Assembly (NCBI GenBank): GCA_964579165.1
Contig: CAZOFF010000034.1
Coordinates: 1-5,523 of the forward strand
Source of the DNA: Candidatus Woesearchaeota archaeon
GTDB taxonomy: Archaea; Nanobdellota; Nanobdellia; Pacearchaeales; GW2011-AR1
Length of the DNA: 5,523 nt
Direction: 5' to 3'
Part shown: positions 703-5,523 of the stretch, one piece after another
How the letters are laid out: each line of letters begins with the position of its first letter
Position numbering within the stretch: the stretch's first letter is position 1
Made by a program: the position numbers and the translations under genes
The notes under the pieces: generated by a model
Database searches by the model: none
Seen by the model: only the letters and a program-made list of their open reading frames with translations
Told to the model about the DNA's origin: nothing

Positions 703-775
703 CGCCCCGACCGGGATTCGAACCCGGGTCACTGCCGTGAAAGGGCAGCATACTTGGCCTCTATACTATCGGGGC
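703..775 (-). tRNA. tRNA-Glu (anticodon UUC), 73 nt, no intron, CCA not encoded
   Basis: The minus strand folds by hand as GCCCCGA-TA-GTAT-AGAGGCCAA-GTAT-G-CTGCC-CTTTCAC-GGCAG-TGAC-CCGGG-TTCGAAT-CCCGG-TCGGGGC-G. This gives a 7-bp acceptor stem, a 4-bp D stem with two G-U pairs, a 5-bp anticodon stem, a 7-nt loop with TTC at positions 34-36, a 4-nt variable loop and a canonical T arm. Confidence 0.93.
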
Positions 776-780
776 GCGAG

Positions 781-915
781 GACACCAGAGGTTTCCTTCG
801 CTTAACCTTCCTTCACTAAAGTCACTATGACACTCAAAGTTTCTTTGCTTAACCTTCCTTCACTAAAGTCACTATGACACTCAAAGGTTTTCTCCAACCT
901 TCCTTCACTAAAACC
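781..915. repeat. Three tandem ~47-bp units (781-828, 829-875, 876-~915) starting 5 bp from the 5' end of tRNA-Glu
   Basis: The 40-nt block GCTTAACCTTCCTTCACTAAAGTCACTATGACACTCAAAG is identical at 800-839 and 847-886. The 17-mer AACCTTCCTTCACTAAA occurs at 804-820, 851-867 and 896-912, giving periods of 47 and 45. Each unit begins GACAC(C/T)CA.AG.TTTC. The array is more G+C-rich than the surrounding intergenic DNA. Confidence 0.85.
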
Positions 916-1022
916 TAAGGCGAGAACTAATCTAAATAATTAGTTTTATTCAAATCAGTTAAAAGAATTAAATTTATTTGCTTTTTAAAGCTAACTAACT
1001 AATAACAGAGTGTATCTTTTTG

Positions 1023-1226
1023 TTATCTTTTTTCAGGTATTATAAGCCATGCGATTAAATAAATTAGGATGCCTACAATAAATGCCGTGAATACTGTTAT
1101 CGCACTCCAAATTAATCTAACTATTGTTGGATCTGCATTTAGATATTCAGCAATTCCCCCGCAAACACCCCCAAGTATTCTTTCCTTCTTACTTCTATAA
1201 AGTCTTTTTTTTACCATTTTTACCAT
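1023..1226 (-). CDS. PspC-domain membrane protein (67 aa; alternative start at 1217)
   Basis: RLYRSKKERILGGVCGGIAEYLNADPTIVRLIW followed by one hydrophobic helix is the classic PspC-domain signature. The 5' end is a direct duplication, ATGGTAAAA-ATGGTAAAA, so the start could be 1226 or 1217. It lies 18 nt downstream of the preceding gene's stop. Confidence 0.85.
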   Translation of the reverse strand: MVKMVKKRLYRSKKERILGGVCGGIAEYLNADPTIVRLIWSAITVFTAFIVGILIYLIAWLIIPEKR

Positions 1227-1244
1227 TTAATTAAATTGAACTTA

Positions 1245-1532
1245 TTATATAAATTTGCTTATTCTTTCCATTGCAGTGAATGGGAAAGGTTTAGTATTTG
1301 AAACGGATGTCAAATACCTTGTAAACTTATATTTTTCAGTATTCCAATACTCACAGAATTCTGCAATATCTTTGTTTCTTTTGCCAGAAATTAAAGTTAT
1401 AAACCAATTAATTACTGCAAGCAAAATGACAAGATATCCAAAAAGAGCGAGAATAATTCCTGACGCAATCAAAACAATTATCCTCATTAAAGCTTCTTTT
1501 CTTTCTGCAGATTTCCTTTTATCTTTTGCCAT
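1245..1532 (-). CDS. DUF4389-like small membrane protein (95 aa)
   Basis: A hydrophobic helix pair is followed by WFITLISGKRNKDIAEFCEYWNTEKYKFTRYLTSVSNTKPFPF. This resembles the DUF4389 pattern (W-F-x-x-L-x-x-G-K/R ... R-Y/V-x-x-Y-L ... P-F-P-F), recalled from memory and not searched. A GAGGT Shine-Dalgarno-like motif lies just upstream. Confidence 0.7.
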   Translation of the reverse strand: MAKDKRKSAERKEALMRIIVLIASGIILALFGYLVILLAVINWFITLISGKRNKDIAEFCEYWNTEKYKFTRYLTSVSNTKPFPFTAMERISKFI

Positions 1533-1536
1533 CTTT

Positions 1537-1541
1537 ACCTC
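1537..1541 (-). promoter_or_regulatory. Shine-Dalgarno-like GAGGT, 4 nt upstream of the DUF4389-like ATG
   Basis: The minus strand reads CCAAAAGAGGTAAAG-ATG. GAGGT is complementary to the conserved CCUCC-containing 3' end of 16S rRNA. This fits an operon-internal gene. Confidence 0.45.
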
Positions 1542-1572
1542 TTTTGGTATAATAACTATGTAACTTTATCTT

Positions 1573-1773
1573 TTAAATCTTATTAGTTATATCTTTTTCA
1601 TTCTTTTCTGCAATAAGATTATTTGTTCTATCTGTTGCAGGATTATAATTAGTAGGTTTATAATTCTGACAAACCAATGGATGCCCATATGGCCCGCATA
1701 AACTAAGTCTAGTCTTTATATATTTTAAATAATCTGGAGATAATTCTTGTTCATTATTTTTTATGGATGCCAT
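1573..1773 (-). CDS. Hypothetical small protein (66 aa), doubtful
   Basis: An ORF only, with no recognisable domain. Its ATG lies 14 nt after the 3' end of tRNA-Ile, with TGATTTTATAAAAA in between. That stretch could instead be the tRNA terminator or a TATA box for the downstream operon, in which case this ORF would not be translated from this ATG. Confidence 0.3.
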   Translation of the reverse strand: MASIKNNEQELSPDYLKYIKTRLSLCGPYGHPLVCQNYKPTNYNPATDRTNNLIAEKNEKDITNKI

Positions 1774-1787
1774 TTTTTATAAAATCA

Positions 1788-1963
1788 TGAGCCTACCAAG
1801 ATTTGAACTTGGGACCCCTGGCTCTCTTAGACGTAAGAACACCTAACGGTTTTCTTACCAACTTACCCTTGAATTTGCTTCAAGAGTGATCTAAAAGATC
1901 AACAATCCTATTGGATTGACGTCATATAAGACCAGTGCTCTAACCTGGCTGAGCTATAGGCTC
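1788..1963 (-). tRNA. tRNA-Ile (anticodon UAU) interrupted by a 101-nt intron at the canonical 37/38 position; exons 1963..1925 and 1823..1788; mature length 75 nt; CCA not encoded
   Basis: On the minus strand, exon 1 is GAGCCTA-TA-GCTC-AGCCAGGTTA-GAGC-A-CTGGT-CTTATA. Exon 2 is A-GCCAG-GGGTC-CCAAG-TTCAAAT-CTTGG-TAGGCTC-A. Once the intron is removed the arms pair, with one terminal U-G wobble closing the anticodon stem. The spliced anticodon loop is C-T-TAT-A-A, so the anticodon is TAT. The discriminator is A. Confidence 0.88.
1824..1924 (-). other. Archaeal-type tRNA intron (101 nt) bounded by a helix-bulge-helix-bulge-helix (BHB) motif
   Basis: The pre-tRNA reads CTGGT-CTTA-[TAT]-GACGT...ACGTC-TAAG-[AGA]-GCCAG. 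This gives a 5-bp anticodon stem, a central 4-bp helix CTTA/TAAG flanked by two 3-nt bulges on opposite strands, and an outer 5-bp helix GACGT/ACGTC. Cutting after the second nucleotide of each bulge gives exactly the 7-nt anticodon loop. The intron interior contains further hairpins, described in the findings. Confidence 0.85.
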
Positions 1964-2192
1964 GCTGTTTGTGTTTTGTGCCTTATAGCGAATGTTAATT
2001 CTTCTTGGAGGAAGGGTTAACATAAGGGAAACCTTTGGTGTCCCCTGTGAGCTATAGGCTCGTTGTTTGTCATTTTTACTTCGATTACCTATAGCGATTA
2101 TTCTCCTTGATGGAAGTGCTCATTGACTTTCTCCTTGTAGGAGGGGTTACTGTAAGGGGAACTTCTAGTGCCCCTCATGAGCTATAGGCTCG
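1950..2192. repeat. Direct-repeat array upstream of tRNA-Ile: units 1950-2047 (98 bp), 2048-2177 (130 bp) and a truncated third unit from 2178, each headed by a copy of the tRNA-Ile 5' end
   Basis: TGAGCTATAGGCTCG is the reverse complement of tRNA-Ile nt 1-14 plus one flanking nt. It occurs at 1950-1964 (the real gene), 2048-2062 and 2178-2192. The DNA between copies is itself homologous: YTGTTTGT..., then CCT(T)ATAGCGA, then TTCTYCTTG, then a GC-rich core (2007-2047 versus 2138-2177). Unit 2 carries an extra internal partial duplication, with TTCTCCTTG at both 2101 and 2129. Confidence 0.85.
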
Positions 2193-2235: not shown

Positions 2236-2244
2236 ATATTTAAA
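2236..2244 (+). promoter_or_regulatory. TATA-like box ATATTTAAA centred about 26 nt upstream of the ZIP transporter ATG (leaderless mRNA predicted)
   Basis: The sequence is CATATTTAAAGG at 2235-2246, with the ATG at 2266. There is no SD-like motif in between. Confidence 0.35.
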
Positions 2245-2265
2245 GGTTTTTCCATTATTCTATTT

Positions 2266-3670: not shown

Positions 3671-4372
3671 TTATCCTATTTTATTAATTTCTGCAATTTC
3701 TTCATGAGTTATGGAGCATCCTTTAAATTTCACGGCATATAACAATGCATCTAAAACTTCTGGGCTTTTTCCTACCCTAACTAATCCTTTTTTGTAGGCA
3801 ACATACATTAGTTCACTGGATCTTATAAATCTAAAACCTTTAAAGAAATCATAATTTTCTTTTTTTGCTGTTATATTTGCATGCAGTTTTTTTCGTAATA
3901 ACTCTTCTAAATTTTTTGGCATCTCTCCCAATACTCTTGTTGTTCTTTCATCAATACAAATAATGTTGTTTATTCCTTTTTCAGTTAGTATTCTTGATAA
4001 AGCTAAACATGAGATTTCTCCGCTTTGAAGGATTTGTATTGCTTTACTCTTTTCAAAAAAAGTATTATTTGCGACATCAATAATCTTTTTTATTTCTTTA
4101 TCTAATTCTTTATTATTGACTCCTATATCTTTTGGAAGTTGTAATACTTTTTCTTCATACAGATTCCTAAGTTTCAAAGCTTCCAACGCAAATCTTTTTA
4201 TAGTTAATGGTCTATCTAAAACTTCTCTTTTTACATCTTCAGTAATAATAAAATACCCATTAAATATTTCTTTTAATGCTTTTAATTCAGGAAACAATCC
4301 ATTCATTGCTAAACTAATTAATGATCCAGAGTCAAATATCAAAACTTTATTAAGCATATTTTTTTTAGACAT
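3671..4372 (-). CDS. PIN-like nuclease-domain protein, DUF3368/VapC-like (233 aa from the ATG at 4372; the ORF track extends to 4423)
   Basis: VLIFDSGSLISLAMNGLFPELKALKEIFNGYFIITEDVKREV, LQSGEISCLALS and NIICIDERTTRVLG place conserved acidic residues where PIN/DUF3368 domains have them: D after strand 1, a GE motif, and D-D/E-x-x-x-R. The start at 4372 (MSKKNM...) is preferred because the 4423 start would overlap the upstream gene by 44 nt. The 4372 start lies 7 nt after that gene's TAA. Confidence 0.72.
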   Translation of the reverse strand: MSKKNMLNKVLIFDSGSLISLAMNGLFPELKALKEIFNGYFIITEDVKREVLDRPLTIKRFALEALKLRNLYEEKVLQLPKDIGVNNKELDKEIKKIIDVANNTFFEKSKAIQILQSGEISCLALSRILTEKGINNIICIDERTTRVLGEMPKNLEELLRKKLHANITAKKENYDFFKGFRFIRSSELMYVAYKKGLVRVGKSPEVLDALLYAVKFKGCSITHEEIAEINKIG

Positions 4373-4379
4373 TTTAGGA

Positions 4380-4940
4380 TTATTTGAAGAAGTCCATAGC
4401 AAGTTTAATTCTCGTTTTAACATCTTGAGTTTTTGTTAAAGAAACATCTGTTACTCCTTTTGCTCCCGCATAATTGGCAACATCCCACATAGTTATTCCT
4501 AAAATTTCTGCTGTTTTTCCTAATGATATTCCATGTTCATAAATTTTAGATGCTTTGTTTATCTTTGCTTTTTCAAAAACATCCCTAACATAGTTTTTTA
4601 ATTCTGGGGAAAGTGTGTTAATAGATTTAATGATGCCTTCCAAATTTCTAGAAAATTCTTTAGTATTATTTGCATTTAAACTGGCCAAAGCTTTTTCTAA
4701 AAATAAACTGGCTTTTTTACAGAATTCATCGCAACCTTTTACTTTTCCTCCATTTTGCCTTTCAATTATTTTGCCTAAAGAATATAATATTACTGCTAAC
4801 ATTATGCTATCTGTGTCTTTGTATATGGAAGCAGAATGTATTGTTTCATTACTTAAAGATCTTAGTTTTATTACATCTCTTTTATGTAATGCATTTCTTG
4901 TTTCTCTTAAAATTTCCAGAACGTGCTCTTTTTCATGCAT
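4380..4940 (-). CDS. Helical protein (186 aa) with a C-terminal UPF0175-like HTH domain (antitoxin-like partner of the PIN protein)
   Basis: The C-terminal ASKIYEHGISLGKTAEILGITMWDVANYAGAKGV matches the UPF0175 pattern (hydrophobic-x-L/I-Y-x-x-G-x-I-S-L-G-K-A-A-E-L-x-G-x-x-x-x-E/D-F/V ... G-I/V), recalled from memory. The ~125-aa N-terminal region is predicted helical and I could not assign it. Confidence 0.7.
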   Translation of the reverse strand: MHEKEHVLEILRETRNALHKRDVIKLRSLSNETIHSASIYKDTDSIMLAVILYSLGKIIERQNGGKVKGCDEFCKKASLFLEKALASLNANNTKEFSRNLEGIIKSINTLSPELKNYVRDVFEKAKINKASKIYEHGISLGKTAEILGITMWDVANYAGAKGVTDVSLTKTQDVKTRIKLAMDFFK

Positions 4941-4969: not shown

Positions 4970-5000
4970 TGTTGGGTTGGCTGAATTTATTTGTAAATAA

Positions 5001-5523
5001 TTAATCAGTGCATCTGTTATCTGCATGTTGATATTTAAGCCAAATATTAAATTCATCATTTGTTGTCCAGTAGGGGATTACAACATTTTCATAATCCCTA
5101 AAAACTATAGAGTCTGGATTGTCTAATTCCAAGAAATCTTCGCAAATCAATGAGCATCTGCAATTTTTGGTATGTAAAAGATAATTGTTTGTCTTTTGTG
5201 GTTCATCGCCAAAGATTTTAAATACTTGTGTTGTTCCAATTCCATAATCGCCTGCTTGTGATGGAGAAAGAACTATCTTTGAACTTTTATCTACAGCATC
5301 AGTATACACACTTGTTGGATAAATTGTGTTTAATTGATTAAGATTTGAGTCATAAAAGCTAACTTCACCATTAGAGGCAACATCAATAGCAAAGATTTGG
5401 CGAAAATCTTCTAAGAATGCTACTTCCTCTTCTGAGGGTGCTACATCTTTTTTGACTGTAGCGCCAGTGGGCAAGATACTAAAAACATCTACACCCGCTA
5501 CTTTTGGTGCGCCTAAAGATATG
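5001..5523 (-). CDS. 3' portion of a larger CDS entering from the right window edge; hypothetical protein
   Basis: The track ORF begins at a TTG at 5474. Hand translation of the same frame upstream (…ISLGAPKVAGVDVFSI-LPTGATVKK…) shows no stop codon up to position 5522, so the reading frame is open to the edge. I recognise no family. Four Cys residues cluster in the last ~60 aa. Confidence 0.6.
   Translation of the reverse strand, partial: ISLGAPKVAGVDVFSILPTGATVKKDVAPSEEEVAFLEDFRQIFAIDVASNGEVSFYDSNLNQLNTIYPTSVYTDAVDKSSKIVLSPSQAGDYGIGTTQVFKIFGDEPQKTNNYLLHTKNCRCSLICEDFLELDNPDSIVFRDYENVVIPYWTTNDEFNIWLKYQHADNRCTD

Follow-up and report, generated by a model that had tools for sequence, protein, structure and literature searches.

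What are the short, G+C-rich sequences that lie beside both transfer RNA genes in a stretch of otherwise AT-rich archaeal DNA? The stretch, which we call the window, comprises 5,523 nucleotides (nt) of contig CAZOFF010000034.1 from a Candidatus Woesearchaeota archaeon (assembly GCA_964579165.1). An earlier reading of the window (the original prediction) described a G+C-rich core of about 37 nt in the 5' flanks of both tRNA genes, in opposite orientations, and offered four hypotheses for it: a tRNA promoter or leader module, a small structured RNA, recombination sites able to invert the block between them, or decayed scars of tRNA-targeted integration. DPANN archaea and bacteria of the candidate phyla radiation (CPR) have among the smallest and most compact cellular genomes, and these genomes carry a conserved, multi-copy, structured non-coding element that is described neither in the RNA-family library nor in the literature that we searched. 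Judged by sequence similarity, the window motif is a member of this previously undescribed repeat family, which crosses domains and is found in DPANN archaea, CPR and a few other bacteria. The explanation that we favour, with about even confidence, is that the repeat is a non-autonomous, structure-dependent insertion element of about 40-60 nt, forming a hairpin, locally amplified in tandem, and resembling the known small palindromic repeats of bacteria.

Copies of the repeat beside two tRNA genes

The copies, the tRNA genes that they adjoin and the duplicated segments that contain them are as follows. Bit scores and E values are those of a covariance model based on 29 copies, of which the window supplied three and other sequences the remainder.

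703-775, minus strand: tRNA-Glu(UUC), mature 5' end abutting copy G1; Rfam tRNA 62.8 bits, also called by ARAGORN
772-816, minus strand: copy G1, subtype A, with head AAGGAAGG, linker TTAA and hairpin GCGAAGGAAACC-TCT-GGTGTCCTCGC; 47.9 bits
820-863, minus strand: copy G2, a weakened tandem copy, second unit of a 47-nt array; 19.4 bits, E 5e-5
871-908, minus strand: copy G3, the most decayed tandem copy, with intact head and damaged hairpin; 8.1 bits, E 0.25, and alignment
1788-1963, minus strand: tRNA-Ile(UAU), with an intron of 101-102 nt (about 1824-1924) at the canonical position; Rfam tRNA 51.5 bits with a 102-nt insertion
1829-1871, minus strand: copy in the tRNA-Ile intron, same hairpin, fold z -4.17; 11.9 bits, E 0.015
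1835-1889, minus strand: 55-nt block inside the tRNA-Ile intron, with TCACTCTTGAAGC, a small hairpin CTTGAA/TTCAAG, head GGGTAAG and hairpin GTAAGAAAACC-GTTA-GGTGTTCTTAC
1950-2192, plus strand: tandemly duplicated tRNA-Ile upstream region, with three direct TGAGCTATAGGCTCG copies in units of 98 and 130 nt
2007-2051, plus strand: copy I1, subtype A', pointing away from tRNA-Ile, fold z -2.36; 46.9 bits
2137-2181, plus strand: copy I2, subtype B (the GGGG/CCCC version with a U-A closing pair); 44.5 bits

Read directly on both strands, the sequences that had been quoted for the motif lie where they were placed: the minus strand from 817 to 779 is AGTGAAGGAAGGTTAAGCGAAGGAAACCTCTGGTGTCCT, and the plus strand reads GGAGGAAGGGTTAACATAAGGGAAACCTTTGGTGTCCCC at 2007-2045 and GGAGGGGTTACTGTAAGGGGAACTTCTAGTGCCCCTCA at 2140-2177. 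The two main copies, proximal to tRNA-Glu and first upstream of tRNA-Ile, share 30 identical positions over 42 aligned columns. The third copy, at 2140-2175, is the more diverged one that had been reported (28/41 against the first tRNA-Ile upstream copy, 25/43 against the tRNA-Glu-proximal copy), and the two partial copies seen by eye in the tRNA-Glu array correspond to G2 and G3. From 200 shuffles, 0.02 occurrences of the 17-mer GGAAACCTYTGGTGTCC would be expected in the window, which has two. The description of G+C-rich islands in AT-rich spacers was also accurate: the copies have 49-55% G+C in a window of 30%, and the other spacers have 7-25%, except for two spacers flanking the copies on the tRNA-Ile side (35% and 38%).

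Copy G1 ends in TCGC, its last base (776) directly preceding +1 of tRNA-Glu (775), and it matches copies in more than 15 other archaeal contigs, all identical except in the loop. Behind it, a tandem array at 791-912 was called by Tandem Repeats Finder with period 47 and 2.6 copies. On the tRNA-Ile side, the sequence GAGCTATAGGCTC, the reverse complement of tRNA-Ile nt 1-14, occurs three times, at 1950-1964, 2048-2062 and 2178-2192; the first of these direct TGAGCTATAGGCTCG copies is the real tRNA 5' end. Copy I1 is followed after 2 nt by one such reverse complement, and I2 directly abuts the third. Each of the 98- and 130-nt units holds one motif copy and an inverted partial copy of the tRNA end (GCCTTATAGCGA at 1980-1991; CCTATAGCGA at 2088-2097), and similarity over the whole unit shows that tandem duplication multiplied the tRNA-Ile upstream unit. 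The same architecture is found on three other contigs (L147, L173 and L174; such labels denote contigs or loci compared with the window).

A covarying hairpin with an invariant apex

The repeat has a regular layout: a purine-rich head, (T)TAAAGGARGG, is followed by a short linker and then by a hairpin with a varying basal stem and a near-invariant apex, G(R)AACC-UYU-GGUG(Y)C. The hairpin consists of a stem, a 1x1 A.G mismatch that is invariant in 55/55 aligned rows, and a 3-nt loop. The consensus of the commonest subtype is TTAAAGGAAGGTTAAGCGAAGGAAACCTTTGGTGTCCTCGC. Subtypes differ in the centre of the motif (TTAAGCGAA, TTGATTGTTAA, TGAGAGCTTA, CAAAT or GGCGTCC), while the head AAAGGARGG and the apex are nearly invariant.

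The variable segment pairs with the sequence 3' of the apex, and the partners change together: GCGAAGGAAACC/GGUGUCCUCGC, UGAGAGGGAACC/GGUGCCCUUUCA and CCGGAGAGGGAACC/GGUGCCCUCUCCGG. Over 64 distinct copies, 87% of the cells are paired compared with 77% after shuffling, a value reached in 0/500 shuffles, and control partners obtained by sliding the alignment are only 43-54% paired. Changes on both sides occur in 7/10 pairs, and double-sided cells number 75 against 24.8 in shuffled alignments. Most copies, those of the window included, have the hairpin as their minimum-free-energy fold; G1 has a fold z of -2.65, and the intron copy has the best fold z in the window. G.U and A.C pairs are about equally frequent (15 and 13, which we take as equal) and both strands fold equally well, so that the alignment is neutral as to which strand folds and as to RNA or single-stranded DNA. 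The suggestion of a structured element is therefore borne out at the level of a covarying nucleic-acid hairpin, although the fold differs from the pairing of competing G-runs with one C-run that had been proposed.

At three loci (L141, L171 and L023), a subtype-A copy is apparently nested in an older copy of another subtype, with remnants GGAGGTTGAATGTCAA upstream and GTGTCTTAC(C/A)ATG downstream. The open reading frames (ORFs) that follow are read from their N-termini as probable DNA ligase, RFC and EF-2. A CPR-type bacterial contig (L156, 600-8720) shows a different arrangement: a second palindrome, CAAATTTGGATCCGGCTTTGCCGGTTCAAATTT, also conserved, precedes each motif copy, giving a unit of about 95 nt. 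At pilN, a pilO-like ORF and trmD, just 2-5 nt separate the end of such a unit from the ATG.

Distribution in archaea, bacteria and metagenomes

Scanned for exact matches to the 17-mer, 185,579 genomes, one for each prokaryotic species, gave 93 matches, a number that we estimate to be about chance level. All of the DPANN matches, however, share their flanks, an AGGAAG(G/A) head upstream and the stem continuation downstream. True bacterial copies were found in Curtissbacteria and Saccharibacteria (both CPR), two Bacillota-type metagenome-assembled genomes with two copies each, a betaproteobacterium and a Syntrophobacteraceae metagenome-assembled genome. A two-part pattern detected 68 loci in metagenomes; archaeal contigs of low GC, from groundwater and sediment, make up about 40. 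The covariance model found 88 matches in 313 kb, with up to five or six per locus, counts being per sampled locus or contig; the CPR-type contig L156 has five copies in 9 kb, and decayed copies are present at some loci. An accident of local duplication, which had been named as an alternative, is contradicted by this recurrence across genomes and metagenomes.

Searches for an existing description were negative. In the window, Rfam at E up to 1 returned the two tRNAs and a sub-threshold match overlapping tRNA-Glu, and no family matching the motif, so that the proposed scan for a known RNA yielded none; at gathering score, 36 related loci gave tRNA and rRNA only. The motif was not found in viral, phage and plasmid collections, nor was a description of it in literature searched by core sequence and by topic. 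Two sets of matches were rejected as unrelated to the element: a conserved coding segment in human-gut bacterial contigs (L105-L168, a 42-nt match family), and conserved 17-mers of Vibrio/Rheinheimera and picocyanobacteria (L029, L052, L056 and others). Two independent assemblies, L117 and L166, both start about 250 nt upstream of the junction between the motif and tRNA-Glu, a shared start point which suggests that the repeats break assemblies.

Copies at the ends and in the introns of tRNA genes

The association of copies with tRNA genes is strong in archaea. In 42 kb of sequence sampled blind to the motif, through a homolog of the ZIP transporter encoded in the window, there are three clear matches and one weak match (11.3 bits, E 0.17). 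Every one is beside or within a tRNA gene: tRNA-Met has two at its flanks, tRNA-Arg has one at its flank, and the remaining one occupies the intron of the adjacent tRNA-Cys. Across archaea and Saccharibacteria, copies adjoin tRNA genes in either orientation. Sense copies are flush with +1 of tRNA-Glu (in two lineages), Thr, Val, Leu and Ala, and copies in the opposite orientation begin 2-5 nt past the 3' end of tRNA-Leu (twice) and tRNA-Met. Among the copies in tRNA introns, two are sense and lie 13-14 nt before the 3' exon, and four are antisense and start 1-3 nt past the 5' splice site (Ser, Gly, Cys and Leu, the Gly gene being confirmed by Rfam). Upstream copies that point away from the tRNA are found at Ile (twice), Thr, Met and Arg. 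Saccharibacterial copies lie 60-120 nt downstream of tRNAs, and those of the other bacteria are multi-copy but away from tRNAs. The suggested survey with a covariance model thus placed matches beside tRNA genes in archaea and Saccharibacteria, although not always, and in both orientations.

It is the hairpin-foot end of the repeat (..CCTCGC) that touches tRNA-derived sequence, and the position touched is an RNA terminus: the mature 5' end, the mature 3' end, the end of the 5' exon or the end of a 14-nt 5' fragment. Other copies lie directly before the start codons of ORFs, for example in L180 (TCGCA\|ATG) and L150, and one lies in an rRNA spacer about 85 nt upstream of the 23S rRNA gene. The rRNA operon with this spacer copy is nanoarchaeotal (L090, 3100-3620). 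Its 16S-23S spacer holds a tRNA-Ala gene on the strand opposite to the rRNAs, preceded by a subtype-A copy, while a subtype-B copy, near-identical to I2 of the window, faces the 23S gene.

Gain and loss of copies at orthologous sites

Comparison of otherwise orthologous sites shows copies that were gained or lost as units. In Kae1 of L107 and L112 there is a 57-nt (19-residue) in-frame insert containing the motif in reverse complement (..EIGKITRAERAPKVPSHTPSFNLGVTPDD..), and homologs of 92% and 86% identity that lack the insert read ..EIGKVTGAKDP.. at this point. The same loop has other inserts in five further lineages, one of which is a diverged motif copy. No bulge-helix-bulge could be drawn by eye around the Kae1 insert. 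Where L143 carries a sense copy in Elp3, in the loop before QHxGxG, the protein is longer by about 11 residues. The window tRNA-Ile intron equals the 46-nt intron of its L143 ortholog plus the 55-nt block at 1835-1889 (a third ortholog, in L048, has an intron of 87 nt), and a block of TCACTCTTGAAGC plus motif is also found upstream of tRNA-Met and tRNA-Arg in L173 and L174. L180 has a copy before an ORF whose L175 ortholog has none.

Tandem copy number also varies, from three in the window to two in L003, a contig from another sample with one 47-nt unit fewer, and from three in L135 to two in L162. Arrays have periods of 47, 60 and 64 nt. More generally, insertions into DPANN Kae1 genes concentrate at three or more hot spots (after EIGK.T, KLA.. 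and LKQKxE), where individual lineages have in-frame inserts of their own, 6-45 residues long.

Direct repeats of a tRNA end, 12-20 nt long, bracket segments that bear the motif. Repeats of tRNA nt 1-14 are found in the window and in L147, L173 and L174, and repeats of the last 13-20 nt of a tRNA in L036, where a 13-nt repeat of the tRNA-Ile 3' end is present, and in four saccharibacterial loci (L074, L093, L130 and L136). In Saccharibacteria, an intact tRNA stands on one side of the unit, and 16-20 nt of its 3' end recur as a direct repeat on the other. On the inner left of the bracketed segments, part of the tRNA end is found again in inverted form and makes, together with the second direct repeat, an outer stem around the core. 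The flanking repeats are thus 12-20 nt of tRNA sequence or are absent, with no fixed short target duplication. The hypothesis of tRNA-targeted integration gains from these direct repeats and from the filled and empty sites. The cores, however, are not decayed scars: few non-coding sequences in these genomes are better conserved.

An insertion element as the favoured explanation

For an insertion element, the history of the window might be reconstructed as follows. One copy would have been placed flush with +1 of tRNA-Glu and then duplicated twice as 47-nt units, and another would have been placed in the tRNA-Ile intron. The tRNA-Ile upstream region, comprising tRNA nt 1-14, the inverted partial copy and a motif copy, would have been duplicated in tandem in units of 98 and 130 nt. 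A trans-acting enzyme could recognise the element by its invariant apex and mismatch and move or copy it as a folded single strand. Such an enzyme might be an HUH/Y1-type transposase, as for repetitive extragenic palindromic (REP) sequences and the ends of the insertion sequences IS200/IS605, or else an integrase, or a reverse transcriptase that works on RNA ends derived from tRNAs. Copies that are kept may take on a second role for a neighbouring gene, as leader, trailer or promoter-proximal sequence, and it is plausible that the flush copies have been co-opted in this way.

The element reshapes tRNA loci through longer introns and duplicated gene ends, adds peptide loops to essential enzymes (Kae1 and Elp3), and sits flush with the 5' ends of tRNA genes and ORFs. 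If it is mobile, it would form a new class of mini-elements that seek tRNA genes, and would be a likely reason why contigs break and tRNAs are mis-annotated in metagenome-assembled genomes. The element also offers a concrete case for the long-standing idea that links archaeal tRNA introns and fragmented tRNA genes to mobile DNA.

Several observations weigh against an insertion element. No transposase, integrase or reverse transcriptase recurs among the 25 listed of the 113 families matched by the 126 ORFs within 4 kb of copies; the viral, phage and plasmid collections yielded no copy; and neither terminal inverted repeats nor a constant short target duplication was found. Conservation is also higher than expected. 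The 37-nt subtype A is identical across contigs of 28-44% G+C, and a 33-nt core is 100% identical between the Kae1 genes of L107 and L112, whose neighbouring Kae1 codons are roughly 75% identical by eye. Such conservation of the core exceeds the expectation for selfish DNA and implies nucleotide-level selection on resident copies, or gene conversion. The placement of the hairpin foot 0-2 nt from a tRNA +1 or an ATG in many lineages looks functional on positional grounds, the subtype-A head and linker fall at BRE/TATA positions (transcription factor B recognition element and TATA box) for a start at the tRNA +1 or ATG, and the location of the foot at RNA termini is accounted for in full by none of the models considered here.

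A possible host promoter or RNA element

Of the alternatives, the one that survives best, although we consider it improbable, is a portable core promoter or promoter-proximal module for leaderless transcripts. It would treat the head as BRE-like and the linker (TTAAGCGA or TTAACATA) as a weak TATA box, with transcription starting after the hairpin foot. Subtype A fits this register in the window, L117/L166 and L139, the head lying at -39 to -31 and TTAAGCGA at -30 to -23 relative to the tRNA +1, so that a purine block and a TTAA octamer stand at archaeal BRE/TATA positions; in L180 the register relative to the ATG is one position further out. Other copies end at an ORF ATG (L150), as do the older nested copies before the ORFs read as probable EF-2, DNA ligase and RFC. 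At L133 and L118, the only nearby classical TATA/BRE fits a divergent 5S rRNA gene, and the tRNA gene has no other obvious promoter. A precedent may be sought in Nanoarchaeum equitans, which we take to belong to the same GTDB phylum as the window organism. N. equitans lacks RNase P, and a box A lying 26 nt before the start drives leaderless transcription of its tRNAs (PMC3491384).

The promoter or leader hypothesis of the original prediction is thus favoured by spacing in one subtype only, and its TTAA..AA centre proved variable. The presumed TATA box is the least conserved segment of the repeat; many copies lack it or have a G+C-rich sequence in its place (GGCGTCC in L146, CAAAT in L042). It lies in the covarying stem, where the octamer is partly base-paired, and we reject a TATA box in the motif centre as a feature of the family because the centre varies. 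The distance from head to +1 varies between 37 and 42 nt, whereas that from foot to +1 is just 0-2 nt. Many copies face away from tRNAs or run antisense into tRNAs and exons, and copies also occur in introns, inside ORFs and in bacteria. Ordinary TATA promoters, moreover, serve the ZIP gene of the window (2236-2245) and the 16S rRNA gene of L090.

Next in rank, and likewise unlikely in our estimate, is a host RNA element of pre-tRNA and mRNA leaders, trailers and introns, in which a stable terminal hairpin marks or protects RNA ends or binds a conserved protein. It might, for example, block exonucleases or guide RNase P/HARP, RNase Z or the splicing endonuclease. The foot lies 0-3 nt from cleavage sites, namely the tRNA +1, the tRNA 3' end (after TT) and, in four introns, the 5' splice site at 37/38. 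The covarying stem with its invariant apex and A.G mismatch, the equal folding of both strands, the nucleotide-level conservation of the core even within an ORF, and the copy upstream of 23S rRNA would all suit an RNA element. Yet the two orientations relative to the host transcript would give two different RNAs (AGGAAGG.. and ..CCUUCCU), and G.U pairs do not exceed A.C pairs, so that the mark of a transcribed strand is missing. By our estimate from tRNA coordinates and covariance-model matches, a copy accompanies no more than about one in two of the tRNAs at the sampled loci, and the copies of non-CPR bacteria lie away from tRNAs. If the element is functional, it bears on how tRNA ends are formed in relatives of Nanoarchaeum, which lacks RNase P. 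It would be as novel as the RNA-end route considered next if a universal factor, by recognising the conserved hairpin, defined RNA ends where RNase P is reduced.

Possible spread through RNA ends, or possible integration remnants

We are more doubtful still of a spread via RNA ends. Primer extension or template switching by a reverse transcriptase would join the 3' end at the hairpin foot to termini of plentiful tRNA-derived RNAs, and the hybrid cDNA would recombine into the tRNA locus. The termini proposed are mature 5' and 3' ends, 5' exon halves and 14-nt 5' fragments. Such a route would explain the exact junctions at RNA termini in both orientations, the direct and inverted copies of tRNA ends, and a hairpin shared across domains. 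DPANN and CPR commonly encode reverse transcriptases of the diversity-generating retroelement (DGR) or group II type. Hybrid cDNA insertions at tRNA genes are reportedly known for the Neurospora Mauriceville retroplasmid, as are U6-L1 chimeras. The likeness, which is one of analogy only, lies in junctions exactly at tRNA-derived RNA termini, sometimes with 1-2 extra bases; unlike in those cases, no reverse transcriptase is linked to copies of the motif.

Remnants of attachment (att) sites appear less probable again. The motif would be the leftover arm, once bound by an integrase or accessory protein, of larger tRNA-targeting integrative elements such as viruses, plasmids or islands. The saccharibacterial unit between an intact tRNA and a 3'-end repeat gives the classical attL/attR picture, the 13-nt repeat in L036 is of the same kind, and some copies border genes that look mobile by eye (an ORF that appears primase-like in L146 and ORFs that appear phage-like in L121). 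However, the segment between the repeats is just 55-200 nt and without a gene in every case, repeats of tRNA 5' ends (nt 1-14) and the inverted copy are unexpected for tyrosine-integrase sites, and the intron and ORF copies are not att sites. Neither does an integrase appear among the 25 families listed for neighbouring ORFs, and the viral, phage and plasmid collections have no matches.

Inverted recombination sites that flip the block at 1023-1963 are very improbable: the copies on its two sides are inverted relative to each other, and the inverted tRNA-Ala of L090 lies beside two oppositely oriented copies, but 6/6 population contigs from different samples share one orientation, copies are not limited to bracketing pairs and also occur singly, in direct tandem arrays and in introns, and no recombinase gene was found among the neighbouring ORFs examined. 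The comparison of synteny that had been suggested found ZIP homologs of 64-66% identity that are not syntenic with the window.

Relation to known repeats

If the repeat is an insertion element, REP elements and Rickettsia palindromic elements (RPEs) would be its closest analogues. With REP sequences, their hairpin-forming doublets (REPINs) and their associated tyrosine transposases (RAYTs), the motif shares imperfect palindromes of 35-40 nt (20-40 nt being the REP-type range), a conserved non-palindromic head and a conserved mismatch, and it too is non-coding, multi-copy, clustered and mostly extragenic, with several subtypes per genome and both orientations. REPs, however, are specific to species or genera, whereas the motif core is conserved across archaeal orders and into bacteria; nor are REPs tied to tRNAs, found in ORFs or introns, or flanked by repeats of host sequence. 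A RAYT-type Y1_Tnp domain was not found among the 25 listed families near copies.

Ogata et al. reportedly described RPEs in 2000 as selfish palindromic DNA lying in frame in protein and RNA genes of reduced genomes. The motif is likewise a small palindromic repeat of host-dependent organisms with tiny genomes, occurs in intergenic DNA, in RNA genes and in frame in proteins, and in both cases a mobility enzyme is unassigned; the 57-nt Kae1 insert is an in-frame insertion of this kind, absent from close homologs. RPEs differ in being 100-150 bp long and confined to one genus, whereas the motif is about 40-60 nt, cross-domain and tRNA-associated, with an invariant apical loop.

Miniature inverted-repeat transposable elements, exemplified by Correia/NEMIS of Neisseria, are similarly short, non-autonomous and multi-copy, often lie just before start codons, and can fold in mRNA and carry expression signals. 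Such elements end in inverted repeats and are flanked by a short target duplication of fixed length. Neither is found with the motif, whose ends (TTAAAGG.. and ..CCTCGC) are not inverted repeats of each other. IS200/IS605 ends also combine an imperfect hairpin and a conserved irregularity with an adjacent short conserved single-stranded segment, and occur in archaea and bacteria. The motif differs in having a single hairpin type without distinct left and right ends, and no conserved cleavage tetranucleotide was identified in it. No tnpA or tnpB adjoins copies at the loci examined.

Other identities were considered and rejected. An archaeal bulge-helix-bulge intron requires two 3-nt bulges and a 4-bp helix, which the hairpin lacks, having one 1x1 mismatch and a bulge of at most 1 nt; in tRNA introns the bulge-helix-bulge is supplied by other intron sequence. 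A CRISPR array would have unique spacers, and the inter-repeat 'spacers' of motif arrays are identical. A gene-specific leader or riboswitch does not fit a module that precedes unrelated genes: at least 10 kinds of tRNA, pilN, a pilO-like ORF and trmD in a CPR bacterium, and the ORFs read as EF-2, ligase and RFC. A leader-trailer processing stem would need an inverted pair, which is present at no tRNA. Likenesses seen by eye to 16S helix 45, an extended Shine-Dalgarno sequence, helix 8 of signal recognition particle RNA, 5S rRNA loop C, the fluoride riboswitch and the attC core are inconsistent across subtypes and were taken as coincidence.

Other features of the window and its surroundings

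The sequence of the window is identical to part of 13-kb contigs of Rifle groundwater metagenomes, on which genes for Rpb7, Spt4, S24e and S27e lie near it. These genes mark the organism as an archaeon, and the low G+C (30%) and the relatives put it with DPANN lineages of the Woesearchaeota/Pacearchaeota type. The tRNA-Ile(UAU) gene was overlooked by ARAGORN with default settings and was detected only by Rfam and by ARAGORN with introns permitted. Beyond the tRNA-Ile upstream copies, a TATA-like box, ATATTTAAAG, at 2236-2245 on the plus strand (feature 2236-2266) lies about 26 nt 5' of the ATG of the ZIP transporter gene; this spacing suggests a leaderless mRNA, and ordinary promoters thus exist beside the motif.

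An overlapping gene pair at 3671-4940 on the minus strand, in which a 186-aa ORF has a weak UPF0175 match and a 250-aa ORF a faint precomputed match to DUF3368 (presumably PIN-like), looks like a toxin-antitoxin module on the strength of these matches. To the right of position 5000 (5001-5474, minus strand), the ORF is called as 157+420 aa, 373+260 aa or 586 aa when the window is compared with L003 and L004, all of one population, which hints at a variable or possibly frameshifted large gene. On contig L002, which also carries the window sequence, a 355-aa RVT_1 reverse-transcriptase gene at 710-1777 lies some 6 kb to the window's left; its size is typical of DGR or retron-type enzymes.

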